From Nemertoderma westbladi (taxonomy: Eukaryota; Animalia; Xenacoelomorpha), in NCBI GenBank assembly GCA_032718475.1, contig JAUCBJ010002026.1, positions 11,630 to 75,629 on the forward strand: a DNA stretch of 64,000 nt, in the 5' to 3' direction. The notes beneath the pieces are model-generated. The model searched no databases and had not been told where the DNA came from. It saw nothing but the letters and a program-made list of their open reading frames with translations. A program made the translations under genes and the position numbers. How positions within the stretch are numbered: the stretch's first letter is position 1; every line of letters starts with the position of its first letter. Positions 2,298 to 51,037 of the stretch are shown one piece after another.

Positions 2298-4409
2298 TTA
2301 ATTTGGATTAATGTGTTCAAGGGAATACAGTGTTGGTTTTTTACGACCATAATCGCCTGATTCCTCGCGGGCTATTTCCAGCAAACAGAGCCGTCCAATT
2401 GGTCTATTCAATGTTTGAGGTACAAATTCTAATTTCTTCTTATCCTTCTCCCTTTGTTTCTTCTTTCTCATTACTGATCTCACAAGTCCGTCAGCGGATG
2501 TATGGACAACTGTGACACATCCAGTTTGCCATCGTTTCCTCGGGATATCGTCGTCGACTATTAGTATTACGTCATCAATTCGAAGGTTTTCCTGACGACT
2601 AAACCATTTGGTGCGCAGTTGGAGAGATGGTAAGTAGTGTTTCTCGAAGTGTATGGCGAATCTATTGGAAAGTAATTGCATCATCCGCCATGTTTGACGT
2701 AAGTATATATGGGAATCTTCCGAATTAGAAACAGGTACCATAACGATGGGTTTCTTCATCAGGAAGTGAGCAGGTGTCAGCGACTCCAATGACTTCGGAT
2801 CAGACGAAGCAGGCATCAATGGGCGGTCGTTAATGTAAGCTGCTATTTCTTCCAGAAAGGTGCGAAGTAACTCATCTGTTAGGTATGCCCCGCATGGTAT
2901 CACGTGGTGGAACGCTATTTTAACACTTCGGATCATCCGCTCCCAGCTACCTCCCCACCATGGTGCGTCAGCTGCGTTGAACGTCCAAGTCGCCGCATTT
3001 ACTTTCAATAACTCATCAACTTGCTCCTGGTTCCATCTATCAACATATGTGGTGATTTCTCTGCTAGCGCAGACGAAATTGGTTCCTTGGTCAGAACGTA
3101 TAGTTTGACTGCTGCTTTGAATACTGCTGACTGACCGTGCTATCTGTCGTCTCAAACACAAAAGGAAGCTATCCATCGACATGTCGTTGACCATATCCAG
3201 ATGTATCGCTCTACACGTCTGACAAACAAATATAATACACCATCGTTTTACTTTGGTACGTGTTCGTTTGACCTCTATTGGTCCAAACATGTCAACACCG
3301 GTGTTTGTGAACGGCGGTTGGTAGCAACTTACCCTCTCACGTGGTAACTTCGCTTCAATTTGGGTTAATGGCTTACTGTACAGTCTTTTACAGGGAATGC
3401 AATTCCTTAAAATTTTATTAAGTGACTTACGGGGTTTAACCAAGTAATAACGAGTGCGCAGTTCACTAAGAATTCGTTCACGGCCAGCATGGTAAAGTTT
3501 GGCATGTGTGTCTTGAATTAACTTACGTTGTATATCTGGGCTATATATTATTATTGGGAATATGGTATCCTTAGACACAGGAGCGTTAGTCAATCTACCT
3601 CCTACCCTAATTAACCCATCTATCATGACACTTGTGCAATTGTCACGCAACGTGATGCCTGGTTCACTCACCAATTTATTGTACCTTGCTGGGTCATCGA
3701 GTTTCTGAGAAAGACGCAGTAGTTGTTTATTAGTCTCGTCAATATCTCCTCGCGTCACTGCTGGTGTACAGTCTCTAGACACACCAAAACGGCAGTGCAC
3801 GTATTTCTTGAGATATGTCACGCTCTTACAAAGTCTATACCAAGAACTATAGTGATTCATTGCTTCTTCCAATAAGGGTGATAATCCTCGTTTTATGTTA
3901 GGTAATGTATCACTTGATCGTCGTGGTGTGATCTTTGAAGTATCACTAATATGGTTTGGTAAGTCTGAATTGGTCGTTATGTTTTCATGGGGTTCCTCAT
4001 GTTTAGCGAAATACGAATTCTGAAGTCCAGAAGTTTCTGGTTTCCGGGTCAAGTCATTGTCAACTATTTGGGCAGTTATATCAAGTGGTATGGTGAATAA
4101 CTTTGATTTTGTAGTTTTCCTTGGCTTTATTATTTCGGCTCCCTTAGCGTGTCGGATTTCTGCCGGTGTCAGATTTTTCGGCCATTCGTTTCCAGCCTCC
4201 CATAAGAACTCTGGTCCGTTGAGCCAACATTTGGTATTAATCAACTCTCTTGGAGTCGCACCACGCGAAGCAATGTCAGCGGGATTGATAGTACCGGGGC
4301 AATGCCTCCATTGATCCACCTTTGTGCGGCTGAGCATGATTGCAACTCTGTTCGTTACATATACACTAAACTGACATACTTCGTTAGTTAAATATTCTAG
4401 AACCAAGAC
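2298..4409 (-). pseudogene. Element A pol 3' part: end of RNase H plus integrase
   Basis: BEL motifs WRHCPGTINPADIASRG, IRVGGRL, H..LYHAG/CIPC zinc finger, TGVDMFGP, RSDQGTNF, WWGGSWERMIRSVK, LTPAHFL. The first 5 codons of the tracked ORF come from element B LTR. Confidence 0.92.
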
Positions 4410-4977
4410 TGTGACGGGATCCACCGAGGATCCCGGTTTATCCAGTTTCTAATCTACGATCCCCGCCGTGCGTATGTGAAAAGAGTTCTGATTGTTGGTT
4501 GATCAATGCATATAGATATAAGGGTATGATGAATGATAAGATATAGCACAGTTAAAGTGAACGATGTATAGTGTACTGGTAAAATGGTTTAATATTGTAT
4601 GGCAGTAGACGGAGATGTGATTAGAGTTCCGGTACTACCCTAACTAACTGACTTACTGAAGTGAATAAATTGGCACAACGAATGATAATATATATTGCAC
4701 TGGTTGGCCGCATTACGTTACTCAGTTGATGCCTTCCCCCCATTGGCTAATAACTCACTTCTCGCCTCCCATCTCTCTGGGAGTGTTTTCCCTCCCCACT
4801 GCTGTTATTCTCTCTCTCGGAGGTATAACCTCTGACCCCCTTTGTGTGTTCCCTTAGGGGTTTGTCGCCCCGTTTATTGGGGTGACACGAGGTTGATTGG
4901 TAACCAACCTCGTGCTCCCAATATTGCTTAAAACCAACTCTGTGTGGGCCTGGTTAGTGGAATTGAATACGCTAACA
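4410..4977 (-). repeat. 3' LTR of element B
   Basis: TGTGACGGG...GCTAACA, a direct repeat of 17604-18171 with about 8 substitutions counted by eye. Confidence 0.96.
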
Positions 4978-4986
4978 CTCCCCCCC
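4978..4986 (-). other. Polypurine tract of element B
   Basis: Plus-strand CTCCCCCCC (minus GGGGGGGAG) abuts the 3' LTR. Confidence 0.8.
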
Positions 4987-5633
4987 ATGCTATCTTCCTG
5001 GTGAGAAGATAGCATCCACCTCTAGTGCGCTACAATTCCGCTGGATCTCGATCTACCATCGAGTGTGGGGTGGAACTATTTTCCTCGGAGCCAGCTTTCC
5101 AGACCGCCCCCTATGGGTATGATATCGCTACCCTGTTTACCTGGCGTCCCGTGTCGGGCCGATCGTGCGCTCCTCTCACACGACTTTTGTTTCCCCAACA
5201 CTTTCACCACTAACTCTGCTCCACTCTCACCCTAATTCCTCCATACTCTCGGACTTCCCCGTCCCTCACTCTGACTCTTACTCCTCCCCCCCCCCCACAC
5301 TTGAATTGCATCCGCACTCTCTCCGCACTGTTACTCAACCCCTATCTCATCCACTCACTCCTGACGAGTCTCACCCCCCTCCCATGCCGTCGCACCCAAG
5401 AAGTGTGATGTCGTCCAATGTCTTGTTCGTGATAGTCAATCGTCCCCCAATCCCAGTAGCTAATTGGAAAAAGGTTGTATGACTATAGTACTTACTTTGA
5501 TTACATTTGCTAAACTAATGATTGCTACGTACGTACATACTAATTGCACTTTTCAATTATTTAGATTACTTGAATTTGTACTTAGGAGTTCGCATGTCTC
5601 GCGTGGTGCCTTCCAGGCATGTTACATCGAAGT

Positions 5634-8100
5634 CTAGTTTGTTCCACCTGCCTTTGGGAACCACCTCAACTCTTCCCCTCTATCGTCCTCCTCCCTTGGT
5701 CGTTTCCTGGTCGCTGCCGCTCCTTTGGTCTTATCTCCCTTCAGGCTCCTGACCCTCGCCGTCACCTCTTTACTAATCCCGGTTGTCGACTCCTTGGGCG
5801 CTGGTGTTATTAGCTCCCGGTATCGCTTCGCGGGTGGCCCCTCCGAGTGGCCCTGTTGTCTCCCCCTGGTGGCGTCCCATAGGATCACTTTCATCGCCCG
5901 CGGCACATGCTCCGCCAAGAAATCCCTGAACTCTCCTCTGTTCTGTGGCGTCCACCTGTCCAAATACCTCTGCGTATTTATCACCCCGACATACGACGCC
6001 GCCGTCGCCACTTCTTGGTAGGTAAACGGAAGCCTCTGTTTGATAATCTCCATGTGGGCCTCCTGATTGATGTTAAAGAAGCCCCACCGGAACTCCTGGG
6101 CCTTCATGCGTTGCCGAGTCATGGCCCCGACGTCGGCCTACTCCTCGAAGTTCCTAAACTTCTCTTCGTCGTCCATCCAGTCGCACTGGCGTCCATAGTG
6201 CCCCCGAAAGTTGCACTTCGGACACCGGTTGTTCAACCGTGGACACGCCCCCATCCTGTGGCTTGACTCGCGGCAGTAGAGACAACTAGTTCCTTTTTGG
6301 AACCGGTACAAGCAGCTCCTTTCCTGGTGGGTCTGTCTCCCACAGTAGTCACAGCCGAGCACCAATGTCTCCCGCCCCACGTCGTCTTTCGTCCCAAGCG
6401 ATCTCCGCGGTCTGTGGAGTCGCTGGTAAGCGAACTTCCGGACGTTAGCGTCCCTGTCCACATCGATCTCCTCGCCCCTCCCGGGCATCGTCTCCCCGAA
6501 TACTACCCGTGGTGCCGTCCCCGGTTGCTCGCCCAACCTGATAGTGCTCCCCGCGAAATCCATCGCCGGCTCCTCATGCACCCAGGCCCGCTTGCCGGGT
6601 CTATCCCAGAAGGCCCTCGCCCCACTGGCCGTCACCACCCTCCCACCAACCCAGTCCGTGTCCGAGTGGCCGATCCTCCCGATGGGCGGCATCTCTCCGA
6701 ACTCGTCGTCGTCCTCATCCTCCTCTGGCAGTGGCTCCAACCCTGGTATCCCGGTGGACCCACTGTGTCCCTTCCCGCCTTGGCTCTCGCCCGTAACATT
6801 CCATCCTTCCAGCTCCCCTAGCCTCCTTAGCGGCTGGTCGCCCTCGGCGCCCGCTCGTATGGGCGTCGTCTGCAATACCGACGTCGACTGTTTCGGTGAT
6901 CCCACCGCCCATCCTAATTCTCACCCTAGAGACTCCCCCGAACTCCCTGACGATGTCCAACGAAGTTCGTCTAAGGCCGCCTGTTCCTCGAAGCCGTAGC
7001 TCTGTGCCCTAGCTTCCTCCTCCCTTTCCGCCGCTTCTCTCCTCTCCTGTCTATCGATTTCTTCCAATCGCTTCACCTCTCATCTATCCGCCTCTAGCTG
7101 CTCCCATCTCTGATACGCGTATCTACCTCCCCGTCTACCAGATGTCGGCTGTTATAGTACACCGACTCGCCCTTCAGCCCCGGGTGGTCTACCAGACCCT
7201 CGAAAGCCATCTTAAAGGCTCTTCTGTAGCTTAGGGGTGATCCCGATAATAGGAATGCCGTTGGTTCCCTCTCGATAACCACGGTCATGAATAGGTTAAG
7301 CAAACCCATCATTATCCAGTCCTCCTGTAGGATATATCGCTTCTGATATACCTTTATCGCTCCTCTCCGGAATTGATACACCTCTTGTTTCCCTGGCCTC
7401 GCTCCCCACTTCAGCGAGTTCGCCAAGTCCGCTCCGTACTCCTCTCTGAACTTGCTCCAGTCCATCTGTTTGTGACACACGAGCCCCATTAGCTGGCCCA
7501 TTGCCACCGCTCCACAATGGCCTGAGTTCTCCACTAGTCCCAACCCACCTGGTGCTGTCATAGCCATGTAGACCGTCTGCGTATCCAGAAGGTTGGGGGT
7601 GTCTGGACCGATGATTCTCTCCGCATCGTCGCGAATCGCCGATCCCACTTTCGTCGTCGACTTTTCTCTCACTAGGGTTTGCACCGCCTTCGGCAACCGG
7701 TTCAACTTCGGCCCGTCCTTCTTTCCATACGTTCCTAGATCGAATAGGAATATATCCCCATTTGGCGCGGCCAAATGTAGGAGTATGGTTCTGGCCGACC
7801 CCGCCGATCCTCTCCTCGAACCCTCCTCGTCTTCCACGGTCCCCTCATCGTCTAGGACCATGTATCCTTCTCTGCTGACGGACTCTACTGACTCTACTCC
7901 CTGAAATGGTCTTGCAGCGCTCGCGCCCCGTGACCTCTCTCCAACCGCTTGTAGTATTCCCTCGTCTTCTCTTCCGGATGCCTCTTGGTGAAATCCACCA
8001 GTATCCCCTTTCCTCCTGACTCCGCCTTTCTCTTCCTCATCAGTTTCCCCGCAATTCCAAACTCTCTCACTCGCTCACCTGTAAGGTGGTGCCTTGCCAA
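5634..8100 (-). pseudogene. Disrupted accessory ORF of element B: DEDD 3'-5' exonuclease-like domain, 3 CCHC zinc knuckles, basic NLS-like tail
   Basis: 7094-7861 has Exo I 'VLDDEG', 'LHLAAP..IFLFDL..LPKAV', Exo II 'KVGSAIRDD', 'LLDTQ' and Exo III-like 'QKRYILQED'. 6138-6905 has CDYCGRQTHQERSC, CLYCRESSHRMGAC and CPKCNFRGHYGRQC. The pieces join through one frameshift (7094-7151), TGA at 7080 and 6921, and TAG at 6138, in frame with 5634-6122. The link to 7894-8100 needs a further frameshift. Confidence 0.75.
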
Positions 8101-8529
8101 GGCGCAGTACAGATGAGTGATAGGTTAAGATGGTCGGTACGGTTCGACAATGGCCTATTTCTTACTTAATTTTGAGTTATAGTCTAATTTTTACTAGTTA
8201 ATTCCTAAAACTGTCAAATTGTACCCTAAATTGTAATTTTGTCCATTACTTTAATTATGTTCCAGAATTTTCTTTCTACTGTTACCATCATTTATCTAAT
8301 TTTCTGATTCTATTTTTATTTTAATTTAATCGTACTACTGTGCTATTACCTACTTATTATCGCCGATGGATTACTCTACTTCGTAATCCACATTCTGGCC
8401 TACTCTGTGGGCTTGTGCAGTAAAACAGTATGCATCGTGTGGCCTACACGATTTATCCAGCTGTACTCATATGCCCCCCTCTTGCTGCTTACTACTAATA
8501 TCTATATTGTACATACCCTTCTACCACTA

Positions 8530-9070
8530 ACTCTTACTAACCGGTACTATGTACCCTCTTACTAACTTTTAACTAACTTCTACTAACCGGTACTACGTAC
8601 CCTCTAACCTCTAACTCCACTAACTAACTAACCGGTACTATGTACCCTCTTACTAACCTCTAACTCCACTAACTAACTAACCGGTACTACATACCCTCTT
8701 ACTAACTCTAACTCCACTAACTAACTAACCGGTACTACGTACCCTCTTACTAACTCTAACTCTCTCCAACTAACTAACGGTACTACGTACCCTCTTACTA
8801 ACTCTAACTCTCTCCAACTAACTAACTACTACTAACTACTAACTAACTAACTAACTAACTAACGGTACTACGTACCCTCTTACTAACTCTAACTCTCTCC
8901 AACTAACTAATGGTACTACGTACCCTCTTACTAACTCTTACTCTCTCTAACAGTACTACGTACCTTCTAACTACTAACTCTTACTAACTAACTAATGGTA
9001 CTACGTACCTTCTAACTACTAACTCCTAACGGTACTACGTACCTTCTAACTACTTAACTAACTAACTTCC
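8530..9070. repeat. Tandem array of 11 GGTAC-TAC-GTACC hairpin cores with (CTAA)n spacers
   Basis: Cores at about 8543, 8589, 8634, 8683, 8731, 8779, 8864, 8912, 8952, 8997 and 9031; spacing mostly 45-49 bp. Confidence 0.9.
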
Positions 9071-9195
9071 ATCTGCCTACTTACTCTCTCTTTATTTATT
9101 TATTATTTTTTTTATATTTTATGTGTGGGAAGGGCGTCTCGCCCTCAATCCCACCCCCCTCAGTCCAAAACTTGGACGACTGAATACTACTCATC

Positions 9196-10403
9196 TAAGG
9201 TGCTCCCTCTAGTAGGCAGCACTTCCCTACAGCCCTTCTGTAGGTCTTTCTATCTTTTGCTCCTATTTAGCCACCTATCCGCACTTCTACCGATCGGACT
9301 CTTCCGTCCTCATCGGAGTAAGTGCCCACAACTCTCGCCAATCGCTATTGGTTGTTGACGATGGTATCATCCGTGACGATAACCAGATCACCCTCTTTTA
9401 ACTCCCTATTCGTGTTCCTCCACTTGCTTCTCCTATGTAGCGTGGGTAGATATTCCTCAACCCACCTCCTCCAGTACTCTGCGCTTATCGCCTTGGCGAC
9501 TTTCCAGCTCTGTCGGGAGTGTATATCGTCTGGGTCTACACCCCACATGTCGATGGTCGCTGGCCTCTCCATTAGAAAGTGACTAGGTGTCAGCACGTCT
9601 AATGACTCCGGGTCATCATTTTCTGGATATAGCGGTCTGCTATTAATGATACCCTCGCACTTTGCTAGTACCGTCCTCAGCACGTCCTCTGTTACCATGT
9701 GGGTGTTCATCAATTTCGTCATCAGACGCTTGGAACTACCCACTAGTCTCTCGACGCATCCTAAAGTATGCGGAGCATACGGTGTCCTCCTCTCCCACTT
9801 CACCTGTCGTCTTCTCATGGCTGCCCTGACTTCCTCCCCTTCCAGGATATCCAAGGCATCCGCCATCTCATTCTCCGCCCCCACAAAGTTTGTTCCGTTG
9901 TCGGAATATATTACTGCAATCGTCCCACCTTTGCGGTCTCTGAACCTTTCTAGAGCATTAATGAATGCTGATGCGGTTGCATCTTGGGCGAGTTCTATCC
10001 CTACCGCCCGTGTGTTGTTACATATGAAGATGATGCCGTAGTGCTTCTCCGTGTGCCGCATCACCTTAATCTTTATCGGCCCGAACATATCCACACCGCA
10101 ATGCGTAAATGGCGGGTCGTGTTGTCTCACCCTGCTGGCCGGTAGCGGCGCCATCTCCTGTATAGCTCGCTCCTTCTTAGCTCGTCGGCAGGTCTGGCAC
10201 TGCCCCACTACCGCCTTTACCTTCTTTCTCAACTGTTTGACCCAAAAGGTCCTTCGTATCTCCGTGAGGGTCCGGCTGGTGCCCCCGTGCAATATCGACT
10301 TATGGGAGTCCCAGATAATCTGGTGGACTATCGGCGATCCATTAGGGATGATGATGGGCTTTGGTGGGATGACAATACTGTTGTTGTTCACACCTGAGTT
10401 CAT
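9196..10403 (-). pseudogene. Element B integrase
   Basis: H..ILHGG, CQTC, CGVDMFGP, YSDNGTNFVG, VERLVG, LTPSHFL. Reading continues past the stop at 9345 as 'NNQ*RLARVVGTYSDEDGRVRSVEV...CCLLEGAP'. Confidence 0.9.
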
Positions 10404-13279
10404 CCTAGGATCCCGTCATCATTGAGTTGTGGTGACAGTGCGATCAGCTCACTGTCCCGTCGGAGATGCTGTTGTTTACCGACGCGTTCCACCTCGTCGC
10501 CGTAGTTCTTCCTCTGTTCGTAGCGGATGACTGCCTTGGCCGCTCCCTCCAGATCGACGGTTGTTCTAATTTTTATGTCTTTTCCGACTCCCTTGAGGAA
10601 ATCCCCGAAGGCTCTCCAGTACGCCACTAACTTCTTGGTCTTGTACCAACTAGAGCTGTAGCTAAGGAGTTTGTCCGTTGGGTTATCGCACAGTTCTTCC
10701 GGTTTCGGTTGCACGTCCCTTATCTCCCTCACCATCTGGCTGTATATCTCCTCACCTTCTGAATCTACTCCCTCCTCCTCTAACGCTACTTGTTCTGCGC
10801 CCGGGTCCACCTTTCTCATCGGTGGCCAGGCTGTCTTATCGTTCAGGAATTGCGGCCCATGCTGCCACAATACTTCCTTCTTCAAGAAAGTGTGGCGTGC
10901 CACGCCCCTCGATAACAAGTCCGCTGGGTTCTCGTCCGTTGGGCAGTAGTGCCACCTTTCTAATTCTGTAGTTGCCCTTATTTCGTCCACCCTATTTGCG
11001 ACGAATATAGGGTATCTCGTCCTTTCGTTATGTAGCCAACCGAGCACTACCATGGAATCCGTCCAGTAGTGTGTTTCCACTATGTTGGGAATTGCGTCCA
11101 CTAAGTAGGCTGTGGCCCTAACTCCTAACCTCGCAGCTGTCAACTCGAGTTTCGGAACTGATGCTGAATCTGGTGGCGTCGACTTCGCTTTGCTGAATGC
11201 GAGTCTGGGCTTGTGAGCCCCCTCTCGTTGTACTAAGTAGAGTGCCGCTCCGTATGCCTCTAATGACGCATCGGAGAACATGTGTAAATCCAGATTCGTC
11301 ATGTCCCCATCCGGGAAATACACACGTGGCATGCTGTATGTTCCCATCTGCTCTAAACTCTCTGTCCACTTGCTCCATTGCTTGCTGATCTCTTCCGGGA
11401 CCTCTGTATCCCAGTCGTCCTTTAGTTTGTACACTCTCTTGAGTATCTGTTTCCCCGTGACTAGTAATGGGGATGCTAGGCCTAGGGGATCGTATATCCT
11501 GGCTATGTACGACACATAGCCCCTCTTTGTGTGGATATCTGCGCCCTCCTGACTCAACTGGTATTTTAACTCGTCTGTCTCTCGGTTCCACACGATCCCT
11601 AGTGCCTTCTGTTGGGACTCCACTCTCTTGTTCGCCATGTCCTGTCCCTTGGCTGTCGTGGGATTATCCATGGTCGACTCTGGCCTCCTGTCCTCTATGG
11701 CTTTCATGAACTCTTGCGAGCTGGATTGGAACTTGGTTAGGTTGAACCCGGATCCTTTTAGGATGTCGCGAACCTCGCGCCCCGTGTCCAGTAGTTCCTT
11801 AACCGTATTTCCAGACTCCATCCCGTCGTCTACATAGAAGCCGCGTCGAATCATATCGACGGCTTTGGCGCTGTATTTCTCTTCCTTCCCTTCTACCGTG
11901 TCTCTTACGGCCACAGTCGTTGTAAACGAAGACGACTTGGCTCCCATATTCTGTACTATCATCTTATACATCGGTATGGTCGACGGTTCCTCATCGCCGT
12001 CGTACCATAGGAAGCGCTGACTGTCGCTATCCTCTTCCATTACACGGACTTGGTTGAACATGCCTTCGATGTCGCAGGTGAAAGCGTGTTTACCATTCCT
12101 GAATCTGAGTAGGACCTCGATCCCTGAGTTGTAGATGTTGGGACCCTCCAGCAGATAATCGTTTAGGCATTTGCCGTTGGTTTTAGCCGATGCGTCAACT
12201 ACCATCCGCAGTTTACCTTTCTTCGGGTCTAGAGCCACGTGGAGTGGCAGGTAATAGGTCCTGTCCATGTTTGGTTCGTCGACCGGTAACTCCACGGCCC
12301 ATCCTTTCTCGACATACTTTCTGATTGTCTTGTGAATGTACTCATTCTTCTCGGGGCTCCGTTTTAGCGTCTGCTTCAACTTACGAAGCCTCGTGAGTAC
12401 CATCCCTTTATTGTCGGGTAACGGTAGCTTCGGTAGCTTCCATACCATTCCTATGGTATACCGCCCCTCATCGCATGTCATCGATTCCTTTACACTTTGT
12501 AAAGCCTGCTTGTCTTCTACCGAGGTTCCGACCCCGGTCTCTTTTAATCCCTCAAAATCCTGTCTGAGCAGTCTCCTGAGCTGCTCCTCTGCTCCCTCAT
12601 CTCCCATTTCTCGCATAGTTCCCGCGAACATGCATCCTGATGTCTCCGACATCCTAAATGGTATTTTGCTCCTGATTGGGCCGCTTAGCGTCCACCCGAA
12701 TGGTGTTAATATCGCCACCGGGTCACACTGCCTGTCTTCGCCGAAGACCGTTTGCATTCTCTCGTGGGCCGTCGGGCAGTCCATTCCTACTATGATGGAT
12801 ACCTTCCTAACGTCCACTTCTGGGATTGAGAAGTCGATACTGTCCAGGAATTTGTATTGTTCGACCTCGATGTTGGTTGGCCGCCTGGCGTTGATATTTA
12901 TCGACTCTATCACCTGGATGGGGTCAATGGTCGCCCCATAGTCGCATCCCGGTGCTATCGCTGCTATCGCGCACCGTCCGGTCCTCATCTCCAGAACCTC
13001 ATCTTTGCTGGAGATGGTTGTTACCGCCATTCTACTTGGCCTCGTTCTCAATCCTATCTCTTCGGCCACCCAATCCTCAACTAAGGTGAAGGCTGCACCA
13101 CTGTCGACCAGCATCAGTGTGGTTACTGATCGATTGCCTTCCCCGATTATCCTTACTGGTACTACCCCTAATAGTACCGTTCCTCTCTTCCTCGCCACTA
13201 CGGTGCTTGTTGCCATCGTCTGACCTTTACTTTGACCGAACTTAATTGGCGTTTCCTTGCATTGGTGCTCTATGTCCAC
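10400..13279 (-). pseudogene. Element B protease-RT-RNase H
   Basis: LVDSGAAFT, YYLPLH, LRMVVDAS, CDIEGMFNQV, FYVDDG, FSDAS, PKLELTAA, WTDS, NPADLLSRG. Frameshifted from both gag and integrase. Confidence 0.93.
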
Positions 13280-16200
13280 TCATCACACATCGCGAGCAGA
13301 TTTCATTCCTTCTCGCGTATTCTACCTGATCTTCCCTGGGTAGCGCTTGCCAGTACCTGCAGTTCATGGTCTGATGAAGTGCATTTGTATGTAGTTGGCA
13401 TTTGCTCTTTGGGTTGTAGCCATCCTTATAAAGTGCGTTGCATATCGCACTTATATTTGTACCAAAGTCCCTACTATTCTTATTGTTTGGGTTCGGCCTA
13501 CTGGGCGTGCTGGGGTTATGTTTATTTGTGTTGTTATTTTTCCCCTGTCCGCTCCATGATGTGGTCTTACCCCCGGCTACTTGTGGACTGGTAGTCCCCT
13601 GCATTGCTGCGTACGGCAGTGACTGTCTGAGCTTTGGCAATGCGTTCGACGCGTTGTGCTCTGGTTTCGGCCTGTGGTAATCGGTCTTTGGTCCCTTTCC
13701 CAGGCTATCCTCGCTATAGACTGGGTCCGTTATAAGTTCAGCTTCATAGTTTAAGAAGCTCGACATCTCTTCTAAACCCGGTTCCGCACCCTTCCTATCT
13801 CGAGTGGTGAAAGCGATTTTTCTCCACTTATTGCGCAGCCAAATCGGTAGTGCCTGCGCTATCGTAGTGATGTTGTTAGACGCGTTGAGTTCGTATGGCG
13901 CGTCCAGCGTCTTTAGTACGATTAGTGCCTTCTCGACTTTGTTAGCGAATGTCTTTATGCTAACGGGGTTATCCTGTAGGCCACCCGATGTTATACCTCT
14001 CAGGGTCTGCCGGATGATCTTGGCCGGGTGCCCATATTCCCTGTCTAACGCCCGCCATGCCGTCGTGAAGCCGCCCTCAATGCCCTGGTATTGCCTCATG
14101 ATGTCGTATGCTGGGCCTCCTGTATACACTTGTAGATACTTTAGGCACTCCGCCTGCGTCAAATTTTTTGTTAATATTTCATTACTATACATACGCCGAA
14201 ACTGTAGGTATTCTTCCGGCCTACTTCCATCGAATTTGAATGGTTCCACGGGTGGTAACTCGATCCTGGTCTTTAATGCATCGATTAACGTGGCCATTCC
14301 CATCGCTTGCGCTTCCAATGGGTTCGATGGATGCTGTATAGGTTCTCCCATTGGGTGCGGTCCGTTCGTCCTGTCTGCCGCTTTCCTCTGACTTGGATAT
14401 ATCATTGGGGGTAGCGGCCCCCTCCATATTTCTGTGTCGCACGATCTATTCTCGTCCAAGGGGTTCGATGTTCTTACTCCTATTGGGGTATATTGTTGAT
14501 ATTGTGATGGGGGAATGTCACCCTGTCCCCCCCCCCCCCCCCCACCGGTATGTTTGGTACTGGGGTTGGTGTTAATATAGTGGGGCCCATACACCTATCC
14601 GCAATAATTCGCCCCTCCCCTGGGTATATGTTATGTCCCTGCATGCTGTAGTCATACTGCTGTGCTGGTACCGGTATAGGCCTATCCACTTCTGGCCTAC
14701 CCGCCGGTATGTACTCCGCGACTTCCGGGTTTAATCCCGTCATTCGCGCTATCCTATCGCCTACATTATCTCTCCCAGCATGGCCTATGGTATGTGCAGT
14801 AAGGCCTACAGTATGTCCTGCAGTCTGTATGTGTCGCTCGGGATCAAAGTTTATCCTTCTCGAATAATCCTCCCCGTGGCTACCGTATTCTCGATCGGTA
14901 GGTATATCCCGTCAGGAAGTTTCTCTTTGACCCCCTCTACTGCTCTCGTCCTCGTGCCGGTACATCCTGTACCCCTCTCTCTGCGCGCAATATGCCTCGT
15001 CAGGTCGCGTTTCTCCAGGACGACGGCAATCTCCTGAAGTTCGACCTCACTGACTCTCCGTCTCCACCTCTACTACCGACGGCTCGCTATCCGTCCTCGC
15101 TCTCCTGTCGTTCGCAGCGACACTTCTTCTACTCTCTTCCTTTCTTCTCTCTGTAGTGCAGTATCCCCGGTCGTGAGATCTCTCGTCGACCTCCCGGTTA
15201 AACTCCACTGTTCTTCTTCCCTCCTCTGATTGGGCTCGACATCTCGTCGCCCGCCCTCTCGCGACGTCAACCTGTCTCTCTCTGCCCGATCGCACGCCAC
15301 TGGGGATACTCGTAACCCCCCCTACTATTCTCCATCGCCGGGTGCTGCGGTTCACCTAATTCGCCCCGCGCATTATCCGCCGACGCTTGTGGGACACTCT
15401 TTGCCCCCCCCCCCCCCCGCTCGCTGCTAATCTCTCGTTGTGGGGCTCCTATAGCCCCCCCCCCCACTCGCCACCTATTACTTCACTATCTCTCACCTCA
15501 CCTCTACACCCCTCTCTAGTCGACACACTAACCATACTGCGACTGGGTCTATTCACCCCCGCCTCTCTCTCTGCTACTGTGTGGCCTACCAGGCCCTCTA
15601 CTTCCTGCCTACTAACTACGTGGCCTACCAGGCCCTCATCGGGTTGACTCAACCCCGCTACTTCCTGCCTACTAACTACGTGGCCTACCAGGCCCTTGTT
15701 TGTCGGGCCGTCTGAGCCCGCCGCGTTCATATTAATAGCACCACTACCAGCATGACCTGTTAAATCAATTAAATCCTCCAAATCAATTAAATTATTTTGC
15801 ACACCTAAATTAGAAACGGAATTATTTTGTTCGTTCGAAATAAGATTATTTGAATTATTTGGCGTATTTATATTATTTGAATTATTTTGTACATTTATAT
15901 TATTTGAATTATTTTGTAAATTCAGATTTAGATTATTTGAATTAGGACTATTCGGATTATTTGAATTATTTGTATTTAAATTTAAATTACTACTACTAGG
16001 TAAAATATTTCCTGCAATGAAAGTTTGGTTAGAATTATCCAATACAGTACTATTAATATTAACGTTATCTACTGTATTATTACCCCCCCCCCCCCCCCGC
16101 CCGTACGGTCACACCAGTCCTGGGTCTGTAATGCGGTCCCTGTAAGTGGGGTATTAATAAACGTTTTCCTAACTCCTGGCTCCTCGTAAATACTCGAGCC

Positions 16201-17485
16201 AGTCTCGCTCTCTGATAGCCCCATCTGCGCCAGTTCCAGTCGGCGCTTCTGTTTGGCTTGATATTGAATAAGCCCCCTTAGGCGGGCATGCAAATCATCC
16301 CGCACACGCTTCCCCATTGCCTCTCTTTCCAGATCCTCCCGCGCACTCTGGTCGGCTAATTCCGCCTCTCTCGCGACTCTCTCCAGTCGTCTCACCTCGC
16401 GCTCTTTTCGCTCGCTCTGCTCTCTCGCCTCACGCTCCTCACGTCTATTCTGCTCTCTCGCCTCATTCGCTGCCTCGCGCTCTTCTTGCTCCTTCCTTTC
16501 TATCCTCCCTATTTCCTCGCACTCCTTAAAGCTTCTCGCGACCTTCTCGGCCCTCTCTCTGTTCACTCTAACCAGTTCTTTCTCCTTCTCTAATAATGCA
16601 CTCCCTTCCACTAACTGTCTCTCTAGTTCTCTCTGGTCTAGCGCCGCCAGATCGAGCTGGCACGCCAGATCTATTTCCCGCACCCGTCTTTCTTTTGCGG
16701 AGGATGTAGCAGACTTATCGGTCGCGACGGACTCGCTTCGCCTTCCCGTCCTACTAACTTTCCCCCGCCTCCCGGAATTTTCCCCGACCGACGAGACCGA
16801 ATCCTCGGGGTTAACCTCGGATTCGCTCTCCTGCGGTCTCCTCCAACCCACCAATTTTACTCCCCGGGCATCGACTAAGTATGGCCCTACGTACACTACG
16901 CTAGGTTCCATACCCCTACATTCCCATAGTTCGAACAGTTCGCTGGCAACCCCTCTCGCTCTCTCATCGGCTAGTTCTCCCTGCCCAAAACGCATTAAGT
17001 AATCAAAATGTCTGTTCGACTCACCTAGCCGCTTCTTTAACTTCACCTCGTCTATCTTCGCCCCTCATTTGGCCTCTCTCAGCTGCTTCCGGGTCGCGGC
17101 GTAGGCTCGTCGGAGCCGGTTGCTGACCCCGATGTCCTCATCGCCGACATCTCCTTTATCGCTCCGGGTCCGGCGTCGTACCGGCGGCCCCACCGTCGCC
17201 GTTCCGGTGGGCCGTCCGTCGCCCTCAGCCTGTGGCTGGCCGGCGACATCGGCACGTCGACCGCCGCTGTATGTCGACTCGTCTCTCTCCTCTCCCGACT
17301 CGTCTCTCCCTCCTCTCGACTCGTCTCCTCGTTGTAGACGGCCCCCCTCCTCTTGGATTGCCGGATCGCCTATGGTCGATGAACCCGGCGTCGTGGGTCG
17401 GTACCGTCACGTCGCGGCCTTGCGGATCGTTAGGTCTTTATCATCGTTAGGTCCGCGGCGGTGTCGTCTCTCTTTCTCGACTCAT
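13242..17485 (-). pseudogene. Element B gag (frameshifted pieces)
   Basis: Coiled-coil piece 16069-17046, Asn-rich piece 15449-16042, and BEL gag core 'FKFDGSRPEEYLQF...YLQVYTGGPA...ALDREYG' with Cys/His knuckle 'CSRCVMSGH'. Several breaks lie at or near long C homopolymers. Putative ATG at 17485. Confidence 0.8.
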
Positions 17486-17603
17486 GCTGTTTGACTGTCA
17501 GTTTCTAGTTGAAGTTCCTTTTACTTAGGGCAGCAGTAGCAGGTTCTGATCACTTAGTGCAGCTTGGATCTAATCACTTAGGGCAGCAGTTGGCTCTAAT
17601 CAC

Positions 17604-18171
17604 TGTGACGGGATCCACCGAGGATCCCGGTTTATCCGGTTTCTAATCTACGATCCCCGCCTTGCGTATGTGAAAAGAGTTCTGATTGTTGGTTGATCAA
17701 TGCATATAGATATAAGGGTATGATGAATGATAAGATATAGCACAGTTAAAGTGAATGATGTATAGTGTACTGGTAAAATGGTTTAATATTGTATGGAAGT
17801 AGACGGAGATGTGATTAGAGTTCCGGTACTACCCTAACTAACTGACTTACTGAAGTGAATAAATTGGCACAACGAATGATAATATATATTGCACTGGTTG
17901 GCCGCATTACGTTTCTCAGTTGATGCCTTCCCCCCATTGGCTAATAACTCACTTCTTGCCTCCCATCTCTCTGGGAGTGTTTTCCCTCCCCACTGCTGTT
18001 ATTCTCTCTCTCGGAGGTATAACCTCTGACCCCCTTTGTGTGTTCCCTTAGGGGTTTGTCGCCCCGTTTATTGGGGTGACACGAGGTTGATTGGTAACCA
18101 ACCTCGTGCTCCCAATATTGCTTAAAACCAACTCTGTGTGGGCCTGGTTAGCGGAATTGAATAAGCTAACA
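17604..18171 (-). repeat. 5' LTR of element B
   Basis: Repeat of 4410-4977. TATATA at about 17883-17888 is followed on the minus strand by TCAGT Inr-like motifs at 17853 and 17845. Confidence 0.96.
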
Positions 18172-21100
18172 AAGACAGCATCAGTCCAAAATGTAGTCCT
18201 TGATATTTCAAAATTCAAATATTCAGTCACGTTTTTAGCAACAGTTGTTGCATAGAAACCTGCTTTCAATTCTGCCCTAGGTGGTCGTGTCCTTAACTCT
18301 TTATTCACAATGAGAGCTTTAGAAGCAACCAAGGCTACACGTACATCGTGAGGGGTTTGTACACGCAAGTAAGCTACAATACCTAGTCCAACCTTGCTCG
18401 CATCACTGAAGACATGTAACTGGTACTCATAATTAGGTAGTACATGGCCAAAGTAGGCCCGTGGTACCTTAAAGTCCTCAATTTCTGGCAAAGTCTCCTC
18501 CCAAGCTTGCCAATGGGCCAACAACTTACCAGTCAACGGGTCATCCCAGGAATTGTTTTCTTCCCACATATCCCGAACTATACACCTAGCCGTCAAGATA
18601 CCTGGGCCAATGAAACCAATGGGATCAAAATAGGTGCTTAATATGCTAAGGCATATTCTCTTAGTATGTTTACTCTCACTTCTCACCTGTAGTTTGAATG
18701 ACATTTCATCAGTTTCGGCGTTCCATCTTAAACCTAATGTCTTTGTTTCCGGTAAATCATCACGTGTCAAATCCAGATTTTTCGCACCACGTTCTTAGAA
18801 TGGTATTGAGTCCAGAAACTCTCTGGAGTTGCTAGCGAACTTCGTGAGGTTGAATCCTCCTCGTTTAAGACATTCTACTGTGCCTTTCGCTATGCTTATC
18901 GCCTCCTCAACGGTTGGAACAGACTTCAAGTTGTCATCCATATATATATATCTTTCTTGATATTTTCTAGGACGGCGGGCGAGAAATCATGTTGGTTATC
19001 GTCCGCCGTGGTATGAACAATGAAGCATGAGTTAGATGGGCTGGAATTAATGCCGAACGCTTGTACCGTCATCCAATATTCCTTCAGAGGTTTTCTAAAG
19101 TCTCCATCTGGCCACCAAAAAAACCGGAGGCTATCTCTGTCTACTTGTAGGGCCTTCACTTGTAAAAACATGCCTTCAATATCTGAGGCGAAGGCGATCG
19201 AGTATTGGCGAAGGCGAATCAAGATTCCTAGAAGGGATTGCAACAGGTTGGGACCAGTCATTAATTCTGAATTCAGAGACTGTCCTTTATATAGAGCCGA
19301 AGCATCAAAGACCACTCTCACAGTACCTGGCTTGTCGGGACGTTCCACATAGTGATGAGTTATATAGTATGTCCGATTTGATTCTGGTGTCCTTGTTGGC
19401 ACTTCTTCAGCATACCCTTTTGTGATGAACTTCTCCATCTGTTCCCTATACATGTGCCATGCGTTATGGTTTGCAGCCAATCGTCGCTTTAATTGTTCCA
19501 CTCTCTTCTCTGCTAGAATTCTGTTGTTATGGAACTTGGGATCCTGAGAGCGCCAAAGTAAACCTATTTCATACTTACCTTCATTCTTTAATAATTTTGT
19601 GGTAGTCCGTTGTATGTCACGGGATCGCTCATCTTCAACAGATAAGGCTTTCTCATAAGAGGTTGGTCCCTCCCTTTCTTGTTTCATTATACTTACAAGT
19701 TGTTGCTCAGCATTATATTCAGCCTGAGCTCGCAAGATTTCACTTAATTCGTCATGTTCATCGTTAACAAAATTTCCTTGCAAAGAATTATAATTCTGCA
19801 TTTGATAATTAATATACTGTTCGTCATCAATTAACTCTGTATCAGTCTCATCATTCTCTAGGTCTATGTTTTGGTCATTGTCAGTCGATAAGACATTTTC
19901 AAGTGATGAGTCATAGCTAAGAACTTCGTTTACCTTTATACTTGCTCCGGTTCGTTCTTGTAAGGTTTTCGCTGAAGGTCCCGTACAATACCAACCTATC
20001 TGCGTCCTACATGCATATGGTGCTAAAGGTAAAGGTTTTTTAGGTATCTTCTCCAATATCTCGAGAGCCTCATGTGCATTCTGTCCAATCAGGAGGGAAA
20101 TTCCAGGACTGTCAACATCATAACGGGGTATTTTATGTTCGTTGGTGAATTCGTCTTCATCCCAATTATATAATGGTGCTTGTCCCCTCGTGAGGTTCTT
20201 TATCGCCACCATTTTCACATTGTCCAATGAGTATATATGATCATGATTGGTCGGGGCTGACAGAGCACTAATGCAATAGAACGTTTCCAATGTTGAAGTC
20301 CATTTTTGCATTACACCGGCTAAATTAAGTCGCATGGGATATATTTCGTGGTTGTCCCACAGTGTTTCAGCAAGATCTTTATCTATGAAGGTATTCGTGC
20401 TGCCAGAATCCATTAATGCATTTAGTATAATGCTTCTTTTACCTGCATGTAATCTCACCTGGACTATGGGAAATTCTCTTACTCCTACATTCCTGGACTG
20501 TTTCAGTTTTGTCACCTGATTAACTGATGAGTGTTGTAATGGTGTGATATCGTCTGTTTCCGGGTTTGAGACATAAGTTAGGGCTCTTTCCATCATAACA
20601 TGATACACATTACACGAGTCACTATCATCTGAAAACTCACCTGGATATGGAGAACCTGCCAGTTCGACAGAGTCATACGGATCTTCGCAAGCGTCACTGA
20701 AGTGTACACGTTGTTCCATACTTATAGGGGTGTAAGATTCACTATGTAGCAGAGCATGATGTGAACCGTTACATTTTGGACACTCAATACCTACGATTTT
20801 GCAATCTCTCCTCAAATGACCAAATTTCAAGCATTTGTAGCATGTACGTTGGTTCTTAATAAACCATCTCCTGGATCTTACACTCATCTTTAAAAATTCT
20901 GGGAATTGGTACATTTGACGACTTACCTTTGGGCAAAAGGGGCATGTATTAGGATCTTTATTTGTTACCGTTTTATCATTTGTGTTAGTTACTTGGGATC
21001 GTGGTAGTATCCCATTGGTTGATCTTATATCACGTTGGGTGGAGGTTTGTATATCACCTTTCGTATTTGTCAGTATATGGAGTCGGCTATTGGGTTTACC

Positions 21101-21958
21101 GGTTGGTTTCGAATAGTAGACTTCCTGGCAATCAGATTCCATGTCTTCTCTCAAAGAAATACTGCTATCGTATTCTGGGTCATAGATATTCATAACTCTT
21201 TTTCTGGGAACAATAATGGGTTTCTCGGTTGCTGGTTTGGCCTCACTTCCTCTTTCACGGACATCTCTTTGAAATTGTAGAGTGACTTCATCTTTGAGGA
21301 ATTTAAGGAAGTCTCTCATGGTGACGTCACGCTGTCTATCACGTTTGTTTTGAACAACAAAACGATCCCATCGATTACCAACATTTCCCTTTGGTAGAGC
21401 ACCAGCTATTTTATTGACGACCATGTATTTGTCATACATTTCTCCCTTATTCAACCAATCTAACTGTCTACACAACTCATGGACTTCATCCGAGAACTCA
21501 ACCAAGCCTCCACCTGCTATACATTTCTTTGTAATTAATTTGTCAAACACAAACATCGCAATGGTAGATTGATCACCATACCTTTCAGAAAGTGTGTTCC
21601 ATGCTTCTTGTAACCCTTGAGGATGACCTACATATTTCAGAGCCATTGTTTTTGGGGGTCCCTCTAGACATTCAATGAGAAATCTTAATTTTTCTCCTTC
21701 AGTCAAAATTGAGTTCTGTATATTGTCTTTAAAGTACTCGTGGAAAGGAAGCCATTTCAATGCATCTCCATTAAATTTTATCGTTTCACCTCCAGTTACA
21801 ACCTGTCTCGCCTCAGTTCTGGCCATTTGTCTACTCAGGCTTTCTTGAATTGAGAGGTTAAGAAAAGATGTCGATAAATTACCAAGGCTATCTGGTGGTC
21901 GGGTAACATTAGGTGGTACTTGCATGGGATTAGGGTTCAAGAATGGGTCAATACTCAA
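18172..21958 (-). pseudogene. Element A gag core, protease, RT and RNase H 5' part
   Basis: KFNGDALKWLPF, CYKCLKFGHLRRDC, CPKCNGSHHALLH, LMDSGST, RVVFDAS, SDIEGMFLQV. The YMDD motif is broken by a TA-dinucleotide expansion near 18945. Stop at about 18795, then TLGLRWN and FSDAS. Confidence 0.92.
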
Positions 21959-24400
21959 TAGGTGGTTGATCAGTGTCTCTCATTTGGGTCCTCATGGTTG
22001 CTATGTTTTCTGCATGCATACCATTAGTTTGCGCTGATCTTTGAAGAATGTGTACATTCTGCCCAATTCTAACATTTTCTGATGATGGTAATTGGTTATT
22101 AACCGCAGCTAATGTATCCTTAGCAGTTACTAGTTGTTGTTGAATTCCCTCCAGAACTTGAGTGGAATAATATATTTCATTTTGTTTTCTTTCAAATACT
22201 TTATCATTCTCTCGGAGTTTATTTAGATCAGCTTCCTTCACATTATTTAACCTCAAAATTGCATCTTGTACTCCCTTTAATTTGTTTAGATTTTCTGCAT
22301 ATGTATTTGCAAACTCACCATTATTTCCTAATGTATGTCTTAACTCTGAGATGGTGTCTCGCAGACCCTGTTGCACCCTTTTGCCTTCCTCAATTTGGGT
22401 TCTAGTTATCTCACTATCCATTGGTTTAATAATGTTTTTTGGCCTACATACTTTACCTGTTTCATTGGTCCTCCTTAACTGTTCAGGATGGGCCCCTTGC
22501 TCACCAATGACCACTTCCGACATATCTGCGGATCCATGGGTCTCATTGGTTCCATCAATGGCCAATCTACGGTGACTAATCGGTGACAAACCACTCTCAA
22601 AGGAAACACGCTCATTCTGGGGAACTCTGACTGTGCTGGACATGCATGGGTCACTAATAGTCTTCTCACCTTGTACAAAACTTACAGTAGTATGTTTAGT
22701 CTGGTTCAATCCATGTGTCTTACCTGCGGGTCCAGCCTGAGCTACTGCCGACATAGCTGCAGTTCCATAGCCAGGGTTATTATGATTAAGTTCGGGTGTC
22801 TTACCAGTTACTAGAGTTACCTTTAGTTGTTTATTATTTGATATTTTATTGTTTGTCAATTGAGCTGGAACTGACATATCTGGACCAGGTTCAGCTTCAG
22901 CTTCCTCATCAACATCTATAATGGTAACCAAGGGGGCAGATTGTTTTAGAGAGGATGTGTCACTTTGGCAGACGTCAGAATATGCATGTGGGTTAGATCT
23001 CGGTGGCATATCCGGCATCCGGATTAACGATGCTCGCTTTCTGTGACTGTTCTTGGCCCTCGAGGAATAGACTTTGCTTATGTCACTATCACTTGCACCC
23101 TCATCTGATGAGGTGAAATAATTGGCCTTCCGGGTGATCCGTTTTTTGTCAAGCGAAGAGAATTTCCTTTGTATCTCCTCCCTTTTTCTTGCCATTTCAA
23201 CCTCTGCAGCTAAAGCCGCTTTCTTTCGTTCGAGTTCCAATGCCCTTAATTGGTCGGCCTTAACTTTCTCTGCATCAGCTTCGGCCTTAATTTTCTCTGC
23301 CTCGGCTTCGGCCTTAATTCTATCTGTCTCGGCTTTGGCATTAATTTTATCTGCTTCGGCCTCTAATTCTAGTTCGATCACCTGTTGCTTCCTCCTTTTC
23401 TGAGCAGCATCTAATTCCAGTTGCTCCAAAGCACGCTCTTTGCCCAGTCGGTCAATGTCTTCCAACACCCGTTTAGCTTGTTTACTCCTTGGGTTCAGGC
23501 CCTGCAATCGCCGGCACAATTCTGTTTCTCCCACGATTTCTATTTGATCTGTCAGTTGTGAGATGGCATCTACTGGGACTTCTTGTTTGTATTCTAGAAC
23601 AGATTTGGATAGGACAACCACTTCTTTGAGTAAGTCATTTATCAATTTATCCAAAACAGAATCCTGAAGTCTTAGTGCCACTTCATGGAATGCCGAAAAA
23701 ATTATTATTATACGCAACACTCTCTGCACCACTTCGAAATCTAATGAGGGATCAATAACTTGTGTACTCCGCTCAGCATGGAGTCAAATTTTAAGTTGCT
23801 CAATTTGTTTACTAAAGCCTTGCTTAAATGTTCTCGCCATCCTTTGATAAGTCATGGATTCTGTCACTGATTTTGGCATTTTTAATTTTTGTAAATCTTC
23901 TACAGTAGCATCACCTAGGTTAAAAAACCTGTGTAACTTGGGGAAATTGTGCTGGCGTAATACCTCTCTTTGAAACTCACCTGCAGAATATCCTGCATGG
24001 AGTGTTGATGTTGGTTTATAAGTCTCTATTGCCTCTAGCAGGCGGATTAATTGATTCGGTGGCAGCCTCGTTAAGGGATCTTTAAACGAGGTGTCAGAAC
24101 CAGAACCTTTAGATGAACTGACTTCACTTACACTAGCTGGAATGGATTCAGATTGGGGGTGTGAAGCCTCACCTATTATCGGTCCACCTATTTATTGTAT
24201 TATGAGAGGCCTGGTTACCTTGTATAATTTCATTGTCAGGCAATACAGTCATGTTCATGTCATTTCTGCTGTAAATATCATCCCTGTCATAATTGTAACT
24301 GTCACTACTATAAGTGGGACTTCTTTGTGTTCTGACGTCCACACTTGCTGCTTGTTCTCGCTGGGAAGTCTTATTTTTCCATTAATGCAAGTCTTACTGT
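21948..24400 (-). pseudogene. Element A gag N-terminal region (coiled coil)
   Basis: 594-aa ORF with AEAEKIK repeats and 'FTSSDEG', shared with element C. An upstream broken frame 'KDPLTRLP..HAGYS..HNFP..FNLGDA..EDL' resembles C 46475-47338. The 5' limit is approximate. Confidence 0.7.
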
Positions 24401-25370: not shown

Positions 25371-25663
25371 TGTAATAGGAATATAACAGTATCGGTAGCG
25401 TATAGCCTTTACTTTGTTTTAGGTTAGGCATAGGCCTGTAGAACGTGGTTAGAATTTGTTGCTAATATAACTAAACTATATATATGATGATATTATTATG
25501 GTGATCAAATGGTGATGTACAGATGTTCTGATGTGATTATATTTTGTTATTATATTTTATTATACAGTCCCTATATTATGATGAACCAAGTATAAGCAAC
25601 AGACTACGTTATTTATATGATCGGGTTGATGCAGATAAGAGCATGATGAGATAGCTTATTACA
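25371..25663 (+). repeat. 5' LTR of Gypsy D
   Basis: TGTAATAGG...TTATTACA, 293 bp. Confidence 0.95.
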
Positions 25664-25677
25664 TGGAGGTCCCACCG
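25664..25677 (+). other. Primer-binding site, tRNA-Gln type
   Basis: TGGAGGTCCCACCG directly after the LTR is complementary to the tRNA-Gln 3' end (...CGGTGGGACCTCCA). Confidence 0.8.
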
Positions 25678-25833
25678 GCTGCATTCACTACGATCTATAG
25701 GGTAAGGGTATACAGGCTTATGTTTAACATCTAGAGGTGGGTTATGCGGTAAGTAGCAGAACTGGAGCGTGTTACTCGTCAAACTGCCGAAGAAACGAAA
25801 GATATTTATCACGGGGAGATTAGAAAAGCAGCA

Positions 25834-31038: not shown

Positions 31039-31430
31039 TTATTCTTTTTTTATGAAATAAGTTAGAACGAAATTGAAACGATGTTACGGGAGTATATTTT
31101 GATGGCAATTACAATGTAATTAATAATTTAATTATTGTGCATATATTTTTAATTTGTATTTGGAAAACTATTTTTTGTGATGAAGGAAAGGAGTATTGCA
31201 GTTGTAATAGATTAAAGCATTTGGTACACCTAACAATGTACTATATAGATAATTTGATTGATACGATTATTATAAACTGAAAGTATTTTGTGAATTTATT
31301 TTGAGTGCGTTAATTACGATTATAATATAAAGAATTGAGATATGTTATTTTTTTAAGATAGTAGAATATTAATAGTGTAATAATTTTTTGTAATTTTGAA
31401 GATCGAGTCGATCTTTATTTCCAAGGTGGA

Positions 31431-31727
31431 TGTAATAGGAATATAACAGTATCGGTAGCGTATAGCCTTTACTTTGTTTTAGGTTAGGCATAGGCCTGTA
31501 GAACGTGGTTAGAATTTGTTGCTAATATAACTAAACTATATATAAAAATGATGATATTATTATGGTGATCAAATGGTGATGTACAGATGTTCTGATGTGA
31601 TTATATTTTGTTATTATATTTTATTATACAGTCCCTATATTATGATGAACCAAGTATAAGCAACAGACTACGTTATTTATATGATCGGGTTGATGCAGAT
31701 AAGAGCATGATGAGATAGCTTATTACA
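31431..31727 (+). repeat. 3' LTR of Gypsy D
   Basis: Direct repeat of 25371-25663, 297 bp. Confidence 0.95.
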
Positions 31728-34145: not shown

Positions 34146-34249
34146 AATTTTAATGATATGTTTTATTGCATGTCAATATTGACATCTAATGTCAATATTG
34201 ACATGAACGCTGGGTTCTTATGTTCATTTCACCCCCACCAAATCTATTT

Positions 34250-36099: not shown

Positions 36100-36101
36100 A
36101 A

Positions 36102-50970: not shown

Positions 50971-51037
50971 CCTCTATATCGAATTGTTGGGGTAGATTGC
51001 GGTAGATTGTGGTAGGTTGGGGTAATTAGTAGGACCC

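Follow-up and report, generated by a model that had tools for sequence, protein, structure and literature searches.

A putative DEDDy exonuclease and zinc-knuckle gene in the env position of a BEL/Pao retrotransposon from Nemertoderma westbladi

We analyzed a 64,000-nucleotide stretch of DNA from the xenacoelomorph Nemertoderma westbladi (contig JAUCBJ010002026.1 of assembly GCA_032718475.1, forward-strand positions 11,630 to 75,629), here called the window. A BEL/Pao long terminal repeat (LTR) retrotransposon in it, element B, carries a third gene in the env slot, between pol and the 3' LTR, that joins a piece very probably folded like DEDDy 3'-5' exonucleases to three CCHC zinc knuckles. We tentatively propose, at a little short of an even chance, that the product is an RNA-trimming 3'-5' exonuclease that would help the element against host small-RNA silencing. 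The three knuckles would bind single-stranded RNA (ssRNA) and the DEDDy domain would remove 3' nucleotides with two metals, a step that we hold to be reasonably probable and no higher because the fourth catalytic acid is Glu. We favor RNA-binding 3'-5' trimming because a DEDDy domain with CCHC fingers is the layout of TbRND, the trimming RNase D of Trypanosoma brucei. The substrate would be the RNAs of host silencing, or their precursors, and not RNA or cDNA made by the element itself; this is the least certain step, with somewhat less than half of the remaining odds. If the proposal is true, animal LTR retrotransposons encode catalytic anti-silencing factors, and since the nuclease piece is unbroken in the element B copy, its activity and substrate are directly testable.

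The third gene of element B

Element B is a single BEL/Pao LTR element that occupies 13.8 kb on the minus strand (4410-18171), and all of its features given below lie on that strand. Its third gene, about 800 codons counted from the ATG at 8040, is broken in five places by three stops and two frame changes. The basic N-terminal piece (7894-8040; about 46 codons from the ATG, in the open reading frame (ORF) 8124-7894) ends at a frame change near 7890-7900. It is followed by the nuclease piece (7097-7900), which is uninterrupted within the ORF 8074-7094 up to the second frame change near 7116-7118. A third frame then extends from about 7112 as far as 5634, interrupted by stops at 7082-7080, 6923-6921 and 6140-6138. 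This frame holds a charged, low-complexity linker (6354-7112, with the first two stops), the three CX2CX4HX4C zinc knuckles (6183-6353, starting at 6353, 6284 and 6224) and a C-terminal part (5634-6182) with the third stop, the basic motifs PPAKRYR and RKRPR, and the end stop at 5636-5634. Two or more knuckles were found in 0 of 20000 shuffles of the knuckle-bearing piece. The C-terminal part was compared with Pfam and the window.

An initial annotation, made from the sequence alone, had rebuilt these pieces into one frame of about 820 codons. The pieces, the stops, the two frame changes, the knuckles and the basic motifs were all found as it described them, with a length closer to 800 codons when counted from the ATG; a single frame in the family is supported, with no contig spanning it. 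We consider it quite likely that in working copies the pieces form a single product of about 800 residues. The annotation had also held that the gene is not an env. Indeed, no transmembrane segment was found in any piece (the highest 19-residue hydropathy, 1.32, lies in the Exo III helix), and neither a Pfam glycoprotein match nor the signal peptide of belpaovirid env genes was seen in the third gene.

The nuclease piece and the DEDDy exonucleases

We assign the nuclease piece to the DEDDy exonucleases because ESM Atlas, a family profile and a 41-sequence alignment agree, which makes the DEDDy fold highly probable. In ESM Atlas, the top three clusters for the piece were PF01612 at 0.93 (172 of 256 features in the first of them), and all of the 10 best family-bearing matches shared this family; residues 5-212 queried separately gave PF01612 in 26 of 30 matches, and the two queries count as one source of evidence. 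This source is independent of the DEDDy hypothesis, and shuffled proteins reach 0.9 in it in 4-10% of cases. The nearest clusters belonged mostly to Nucleocytoviricota. The family profile was built from 40 bacterial PF01612 domains, taken from among the matches in 61 genomes and picked to span the WRN-like, RNase D, NrnC and Pol I types. It matched the piece with 12.5 bits (E=3.5e-6 for a single comparison), a score reached by 0 of 1000 shuffles, and hhalign gave a probability of 54% (E=1.3e-4), aligning 161 columns in which the motifs Exo I, II and III keep their order. With this score against our own profile and no Pfam match, the piece stays below the PF01612 gathering cut-off of 23.6 bits and is, as judged from its sequence, a remote relative of the family rather than a scored member. 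BLASTP against E. coli RNase D aligned in register without significance (E 0.99).

The initial annotation had located all three exonuclease motifs, and they stand where it placed them: VLDDEG at 7858-7841, KVGSAIRDD at 7651-7625 and YILQED at 7336-7319. In the MAFFT alignment of 41 sequences, D17 (7852-7850), E19 (7846-7844) and Y189 (7336-7334) are invariant, and the column of D92 (7627-7625) is nearly so. D17 and E19 form the DxE of Exo I, where the first strand (residues 13-22 in the model) ends, and D92 supplies the Asp of Exo II. For Exo III, YxxxD, the acid four residues after Y189 is not Asp but Glu193 (7324-7322), with Asp194 next to it. Relative to PF01612 exonucleases the piece has extra sequence inserted behind Exo I and ahead of Exo III, and its identity to the 40 family members is 9-19%.

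These last features bear on whether the product cleaves RNA at all. It could instead be an adaptor comparable to Egalitarian or EXD1, one that binds RNA with little or no catalysis and that carries, localizes or shields element RNA or acts as a decoy for piRNA (PIWI-interacting RNA) factors. The Glu at the fourth position, the great divergence of the domain and the presence of Egalitarian and Exd1 among the fold matches would all fit such an adaptor, as would the part that inactive DEDD derivatives play in piRNA biogenesis, described in the sections covered here of a study of rotifer retroelements (PMC5408684). Nonetheless, we regard it as unlikely: D17, E19, D92 and Y189 are all kept, a better fit to metal binding than to a dead site, and the rotifer DEDDy ORFs, judged possibly active in the same sections, also carry one Asp-to-Glu change (DEED).

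We modeled the piece with AlphaFold2. Guided by the 41-sequence alignment, the model reached a predicted local distance difference test (pLDDT) score of 75.7, and it matched diDNase, RNase D, WRN, Nibbler and TbRND at Z 13.2-14.2 (root-mean-square deviation 2.9-3.7, 153-177 aligned residues). Foldseek placed TbRND in its top rows for PDB (E 1.5e-5, TM-score 0.56) and Pandoravirus exonucleases in its top rows for BFVD, and Egalitarian and Exd1 were matched as well. The fold check with AlphaFold and Foldseek that the initial annotation had suggested thus returned DEDDy matches; the model suggests that a DnaQ-like fold is compatible with the piece.

Several results weigh against an active DEDDy enzyme and the role we propose for it. 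The guide alignment was itself DEDDy, so the fold matches are partly circular and show compatibility rather than independent proof; modeled from its single sequence, the piece reached a pLDDT of only 33.8, with a best Z of 2.5 in the structural search. One third of shuffled proteins also score 10/10 family agreement in ESM Atlas. The piece was without a match in Pfam (E<=1), PHROGs, NCBIfam and PDB sequences. No true relative, of near or longer length, was found in a set of 5.8 billion sequences, and all eight matches among 1.84 billion representatives were TPR repeat proteins over a short stretch. With Glu at the fourth catalytic position and Asp adjoining it, activity may be weak or absent. 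Outside the nuclease piece, variation in the C-terminal part of the gene is close to neutral (12 of 30 displayed sites synonymous). The BEL/Pao elements A and C of the window (described below) have no such nuclease gene in comparisons within the window, and in rotifers no clear link of the DEDDy ORF to copy number was reported in the sections covered (PMC5408684).

Phage, viral-contig and prokaryote-contig searches with the nuclease piece gave nothing real. One metagenome locus (L001) was set aside as a chance match inside a bacterial gene, which from its sequence reading only we take to be RluD-like.

The motif order and spacing and the KVG...D form of Exo II are common to the piece and to WRN, EXD2, Mut-7 (Nibbler), EXD1, Egalitarian and giant-virus exonucleases of PF01612, from which it differs in its insertions and its score below the Pfam cut-off. 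The initial annotation had named the WRN/EXD/Mut-7 type. Its DEDDy assignment held up, whereas a particular link to that type goes beyond the results, because the structural rows are tied and the WRN-like profile scores below the mixed one (5.5 bits, reached by 1 of 1000 shuffles). That profile was nonetheless the sole standout among the four subfamily profiles, as those of RNase D (3 sequences), NrnC (7) and Pol I (13) were matched by 111, 126 and 309 of 1000 shuffles, respectively. The donor was perhaps a WRN-like exonuclease of giant-virus type.

Copies of the gene, known systems and possible roles

We searched for other copies of the third gene in sequencing data. Five runs had matches, all under one organism label and from three studies; two of them (X1 and X3) are from the same sample, and one may be the window's own source. 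In the four runs analyzed, which represent 3 samples and 3 studies, 7658, 4866, 5291 and 72 contigs matched the third-gene stretch. Their identities ranged from below 90% to above 99%; thus, the family of element B has many divergent copies, with contig depth sums not taken as copy number. Two of the three stops are missing from nearly all other copies. In 4 of 4 runs the entire depth over 6140-6138 differs from this stop, and over 7082-7080 a difference is seen in 19239 of 19530 and in 17257 of 17257 of the depth. For the stop at 6923-6921 there was no variant row among those displayed, and one X2 contig diverges inside the codon. At 7116-7118 some of the covering depth differs in length; at 7118 this holds for 1737 of 5872 in X1 and for 3585 of 6686 in X2. 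Fifteen X1 contigs diverge from the element B copy at 7888. Most breaks therefore look private to the element B copy, that is, due to decay. No contig spans the third gene; the joining of its pieces into one frame across the family is supported, and their linkage to pol is read in the element B copy alone.

To gauge selection, we used site counts from the displayed subset of the variant tables (40 of 734 and 40 of 114 rows, with non-coding rows, duplicates and two stop sites removed), which are not ratios of non-synonymous to synonymous substitution rates (dN/dS). In the nuclease part (7120-7885), 18 of 26 sites were third-position and 17 of 26 synonymous, against 34% expected (p=2e-4), while the other two frames over the same sites gave 7 and 4 synonymous changes. 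Among non-CpG sites the count was 13 of 18 (p=8e-4), and the sole displayed change in a catalytic codon, that of D92, was third-position. All three segregating sites displayed in the N-terminal piece were synonymous. Of the 30 sites in the near-neutral C-terminal part, the linker (6744-7077) accounts for 24 and the knuckles for only 2. The bias across copies is a sign of coding (purifying) selection on the nuclease part and suggests that this part has been maintained. The check in other copies called for by the initial annotation was borne out for two of the three stops and, as far as site counts go, for the nuclease part, and not for the C-terminal part.

These counts also bear on whether the gene is mere passenger sequence of host or viral origin, or unrelated fragments captured by chance, without function for the element. 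The five breaks, the lack of a contig across the gene, the neutral-looking linker and the failure of the sequence searches to find a homolog would be expected of a passenger. We nonetheless hold this to be very unlikely, given the third-position bias, stops that are private to the element B copy, and a GC content by codon position (0.57/0.41/0.63) that resembles that of pol (0.53/0.40/0.61). Moreover, pol of element B is itself broken: its frame changes near 10400 and a stop stands at 9347-9345. Decay is thus element-wide.

DEDDy third genes in LTR retrotransposons are not new as such. Rodriguez, Kenefick and Arkhipova reported in 2017 DEDDy ORF3s downstream of pol, in the env position, of the bdelloid rotifer elements Juno and Vesta, and also in Terminons (PMC5408684), a report repeated in two reviews (PMC6338049, PMC5718144). 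In the sections of that work covered here, the rotifer ORFs have DEDD changed to DEED, and roles in RNA 3'-end processing and in silencing are discussed, with no assay of activity (PMC5408684). Resequenced env-like and GDSL ORFs were mostly neutral in variation (PMC5408684, same sections). As far as these sections go, element B resembles Juno and Vesta in its RNase D-like DEDDy gene in place of env, the lack of a transmembrane segment, the change of one acid to Glu and the proposed roles. This likeness is one of description, as the Juno, Vesta and Athena DEDDy ORFs did not come up in our searches of the large sequence sets. Unlike element B, Juno and Vesta do not belong to BEL/Pao in the parts of their description covered; we take them to be gypsy-like. 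The triple CX2CX4HX4C array of element B also sets it apart, with none mentioned for the rotifer ORFs in the sections covered, which note a Cys-His-Cys motif in Vesta2/5 (PMC5408684). The novelty that the initial annotation had left open was thus lost for the idea and its candidate functions. The concept is already in print, and what is new here is the host group (BEL/Pao), the layout of an Exo domain with three knuckles and the lack of a detectable relative.

Env-bearing BEL/Pao elements such as Tas, Cer7, Cer13 and Atlas have membrane glycoproteins as third genes, according to the sections covered of PMC8742986, PMC9094657 and PMC554778. Element B shares with them the position between pol and the 3' LTR and differs in lacking a transmembrane segment. 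Only env-like third genes are given for Belpaoviridae in the profile of the International Committee on Taxonomy of Viruses (ICTV; PMC8742986). The literature searched, to which subscription papers contributed little and Repbase, Dfam and GyDB nothing, showed no exonuclease ORF in any BEL/Pao element. The term 'exonuclease' is absent from PMC3118150, PMC554778, PMC3315495 and PMC9094657, and no BEL case appears in the sections covered of PMC6338049, PMC5718144, PMC11599104, PMC5603734 and PMC11662393. The nuclease cargo in the env slot is hereby extended from rotifer elements to BEL/Pao in another layout and with a sign of purifying selection across copies on the nuclease part. That unrelated retroelements have captured 3'-5' exonucleases more than once suggests an advantage that recurs. 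An exonuclease-like domain was reportedly assigned, around 2000-2001, to some Cer elements of C. elegans (BEL group). That a BEL/Pao lineage independently gained the nuclease and triple-knuckle protein and uses it as a catalytic anti-silencing factor, destroying or mis-trimming host piRNAs or small interfering RNAs (siRNAs), would be the fullest form of our proposal, and we consider it rather doubtful.

For the trimming activity itself, the closest analogy is with TbRND, whose CCHC fingers bind ssRNA a few bases from the 3' end that is held in the Exo site, as given in the sections covered of PMC7797062 (PDB 7c42/7c45/7c4c). Both proteins have a DEDDy Exo domain, a linker and then a CCHC finger array. 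In the same sections, TbRND is a cellular enzyme that trims guide RNAs, and it has four fingers behind a linker of 28 residues (PMC7797062); the gene of element B has three fingers and a linker of about 290 residues. At 15-18% identity to the nuclease piece, and tied with other DEDDy folds, TbRND is an analog rather than an ortholog.

An active nuclease could also serve in the replication of the element. It would then trim an RNA primer derived from the element itself, or process genomic RNA or cDNA at the 3' end inside the particle, and the knuckles would act as packaging signals of nucleocapsid type. CX2CX4HX4C is the knuckle pattern of nucleocapsid, and DNA-acting enzymes (WRN, Pol I exo) are among the DEDDy structural rows. 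At the primer-site position (17594-17603), a TGG-type tRNA start was not found in the sequence directly after the 5' LTR. The 10 nucleotides there are instead complementary to LTR positions 352-361 (17820-17811 in the 5' LTR, also at 4617-4626 in the 3' LTR), a match reached by 21 of 20000 LTR shuffles and resembling that of self-primed elements. Element B is thus a candidate for self-priming, as read from its sequence, whereas in the ICTV profile the 5' LTR is followed by a binding site for a tRNA (Arg/Gly) primer (PMC8742986). 3'-end processing of element RNA was, moreover, proposed for the rotifer ORFs in the sections covered of PMC5408684. On the other side, elements A and C of the window show no match to the gene, and PF01612 is absent from the 120 BEL/Pao pol relatives listed of 1285, a comparison in which separate ORFs would be missed. 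We judge a role in replication to be improbable, and continue to favor RNA trimming directed at host silencing.

Element B and its surroundings

The initial annotation's BEL/Pao identification was confirmed by the LTRs, a target duplication and Pao-type gag and pol domains. The 5' LTR (17604-18171) and 3' LTR (4410-4977) are each 568 bp long, begin and end with TG..CA and differ at 8 positions (1.4%); a 5-bp duplication, AAGAC, flanks the element at 4405-4409 and 18172-18176, and a polypurine tract (4978-4990) adjoins the 3' LTR. These features, with LTRs within the 0.2-1.2 kb of Belpaoviridae, and the order gag, protease, reverse transcriptase (RT), RNase H and integrase with Pao-type domains are those of this family. 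Pfam gave Peptidase_A17 (3e-42), DUF5641, DUF1759 and Integrase_H2C2 above cut-off; an aspartyl protease was also among its matches. By Pfam and motifs, pol (9204-13279) comprises protease (DSG), RT (YVDD), RNase H/Peptidase_A17, integrase and DUF5641. The gag region (13242-17064) consists of several broken frames, with a coiled-coil-like piece (17064-16069), an Asn-rich piece and a DUF1759 piece (14594-13242; E=2e-10). The relatives of the integrase are animal Pao-type polyproteins with a best identity of 33-42%, and among those with a stated source marine invertebrates and fish predominate (in the 120 of 1285 matches listed). Element B is a decayed copy of a multi-copy BEL/Pao family, and its 13.8 kb exceed the 4.2-10 kb of the ICTV profile (PMC8742986).

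Some further features of the element were observed. The gag region is unusually long, extending about 3.8 kb ahead of pol, with charged coiled-coil-like and Asn-rich low-complexity pieces at 14480-17064. LTR positions 352-361 lie about 70 nucleotides past a TATA-like box and 30 past a GTAAGT donor-like site, and a short imperfect tandem repeat directly follows the primer-site position. Between pol and the third gene is a non-coding tandem array with a unit of about 48 bp (8517-9067), possibly an internal promoter or RNA signal. The array has 10-14-nucleotide words in common with the part of the LTR that immediately precedes the self-complementary site, without significance (E 0.53).

Element B inserted into an older BEL/Pao element, A (2298-4448 and 18048-23783), splitting its pol; no match to the third gene was found downstream in A. 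A third BEL/Pao element, C (39199-47389), has 65-68% DNA identity to A in pol, an open frame of 1313 amino acids and no exonuclease match. Both comparisons were made within the window. Element C is enclosed by long inverted repeats (34110-35058 and 49788-52696) that lie about 15-16 kb from each other; they are made up of tandem units of 89 bp and 52 bp, and their sequence suggests a foldback-like or DNA-transposon structure. At 25371-31727 lies an element, presumably gypsy-type, whose LTRs of about 295 bp are 98.7% identical. Its gag and pol are open, and a PHD-finger-like Cys pattern lies C-terminal to integrase. A frame of 290 amino acids (36080-36952) resembles, we assume, the RT C-terminus and GIY-YIG endonuclease of a Penelope-like element. 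Another of 284 amino acids (52997-53851), with a KSVRF motif, we take to resemble a glycogen-targeting regulatory subunit of protein phosphatase 1 (CBM21-like) and to be a likely host gene. A 35-bp satellite array occupies 59206-64000, up to the end of the window.

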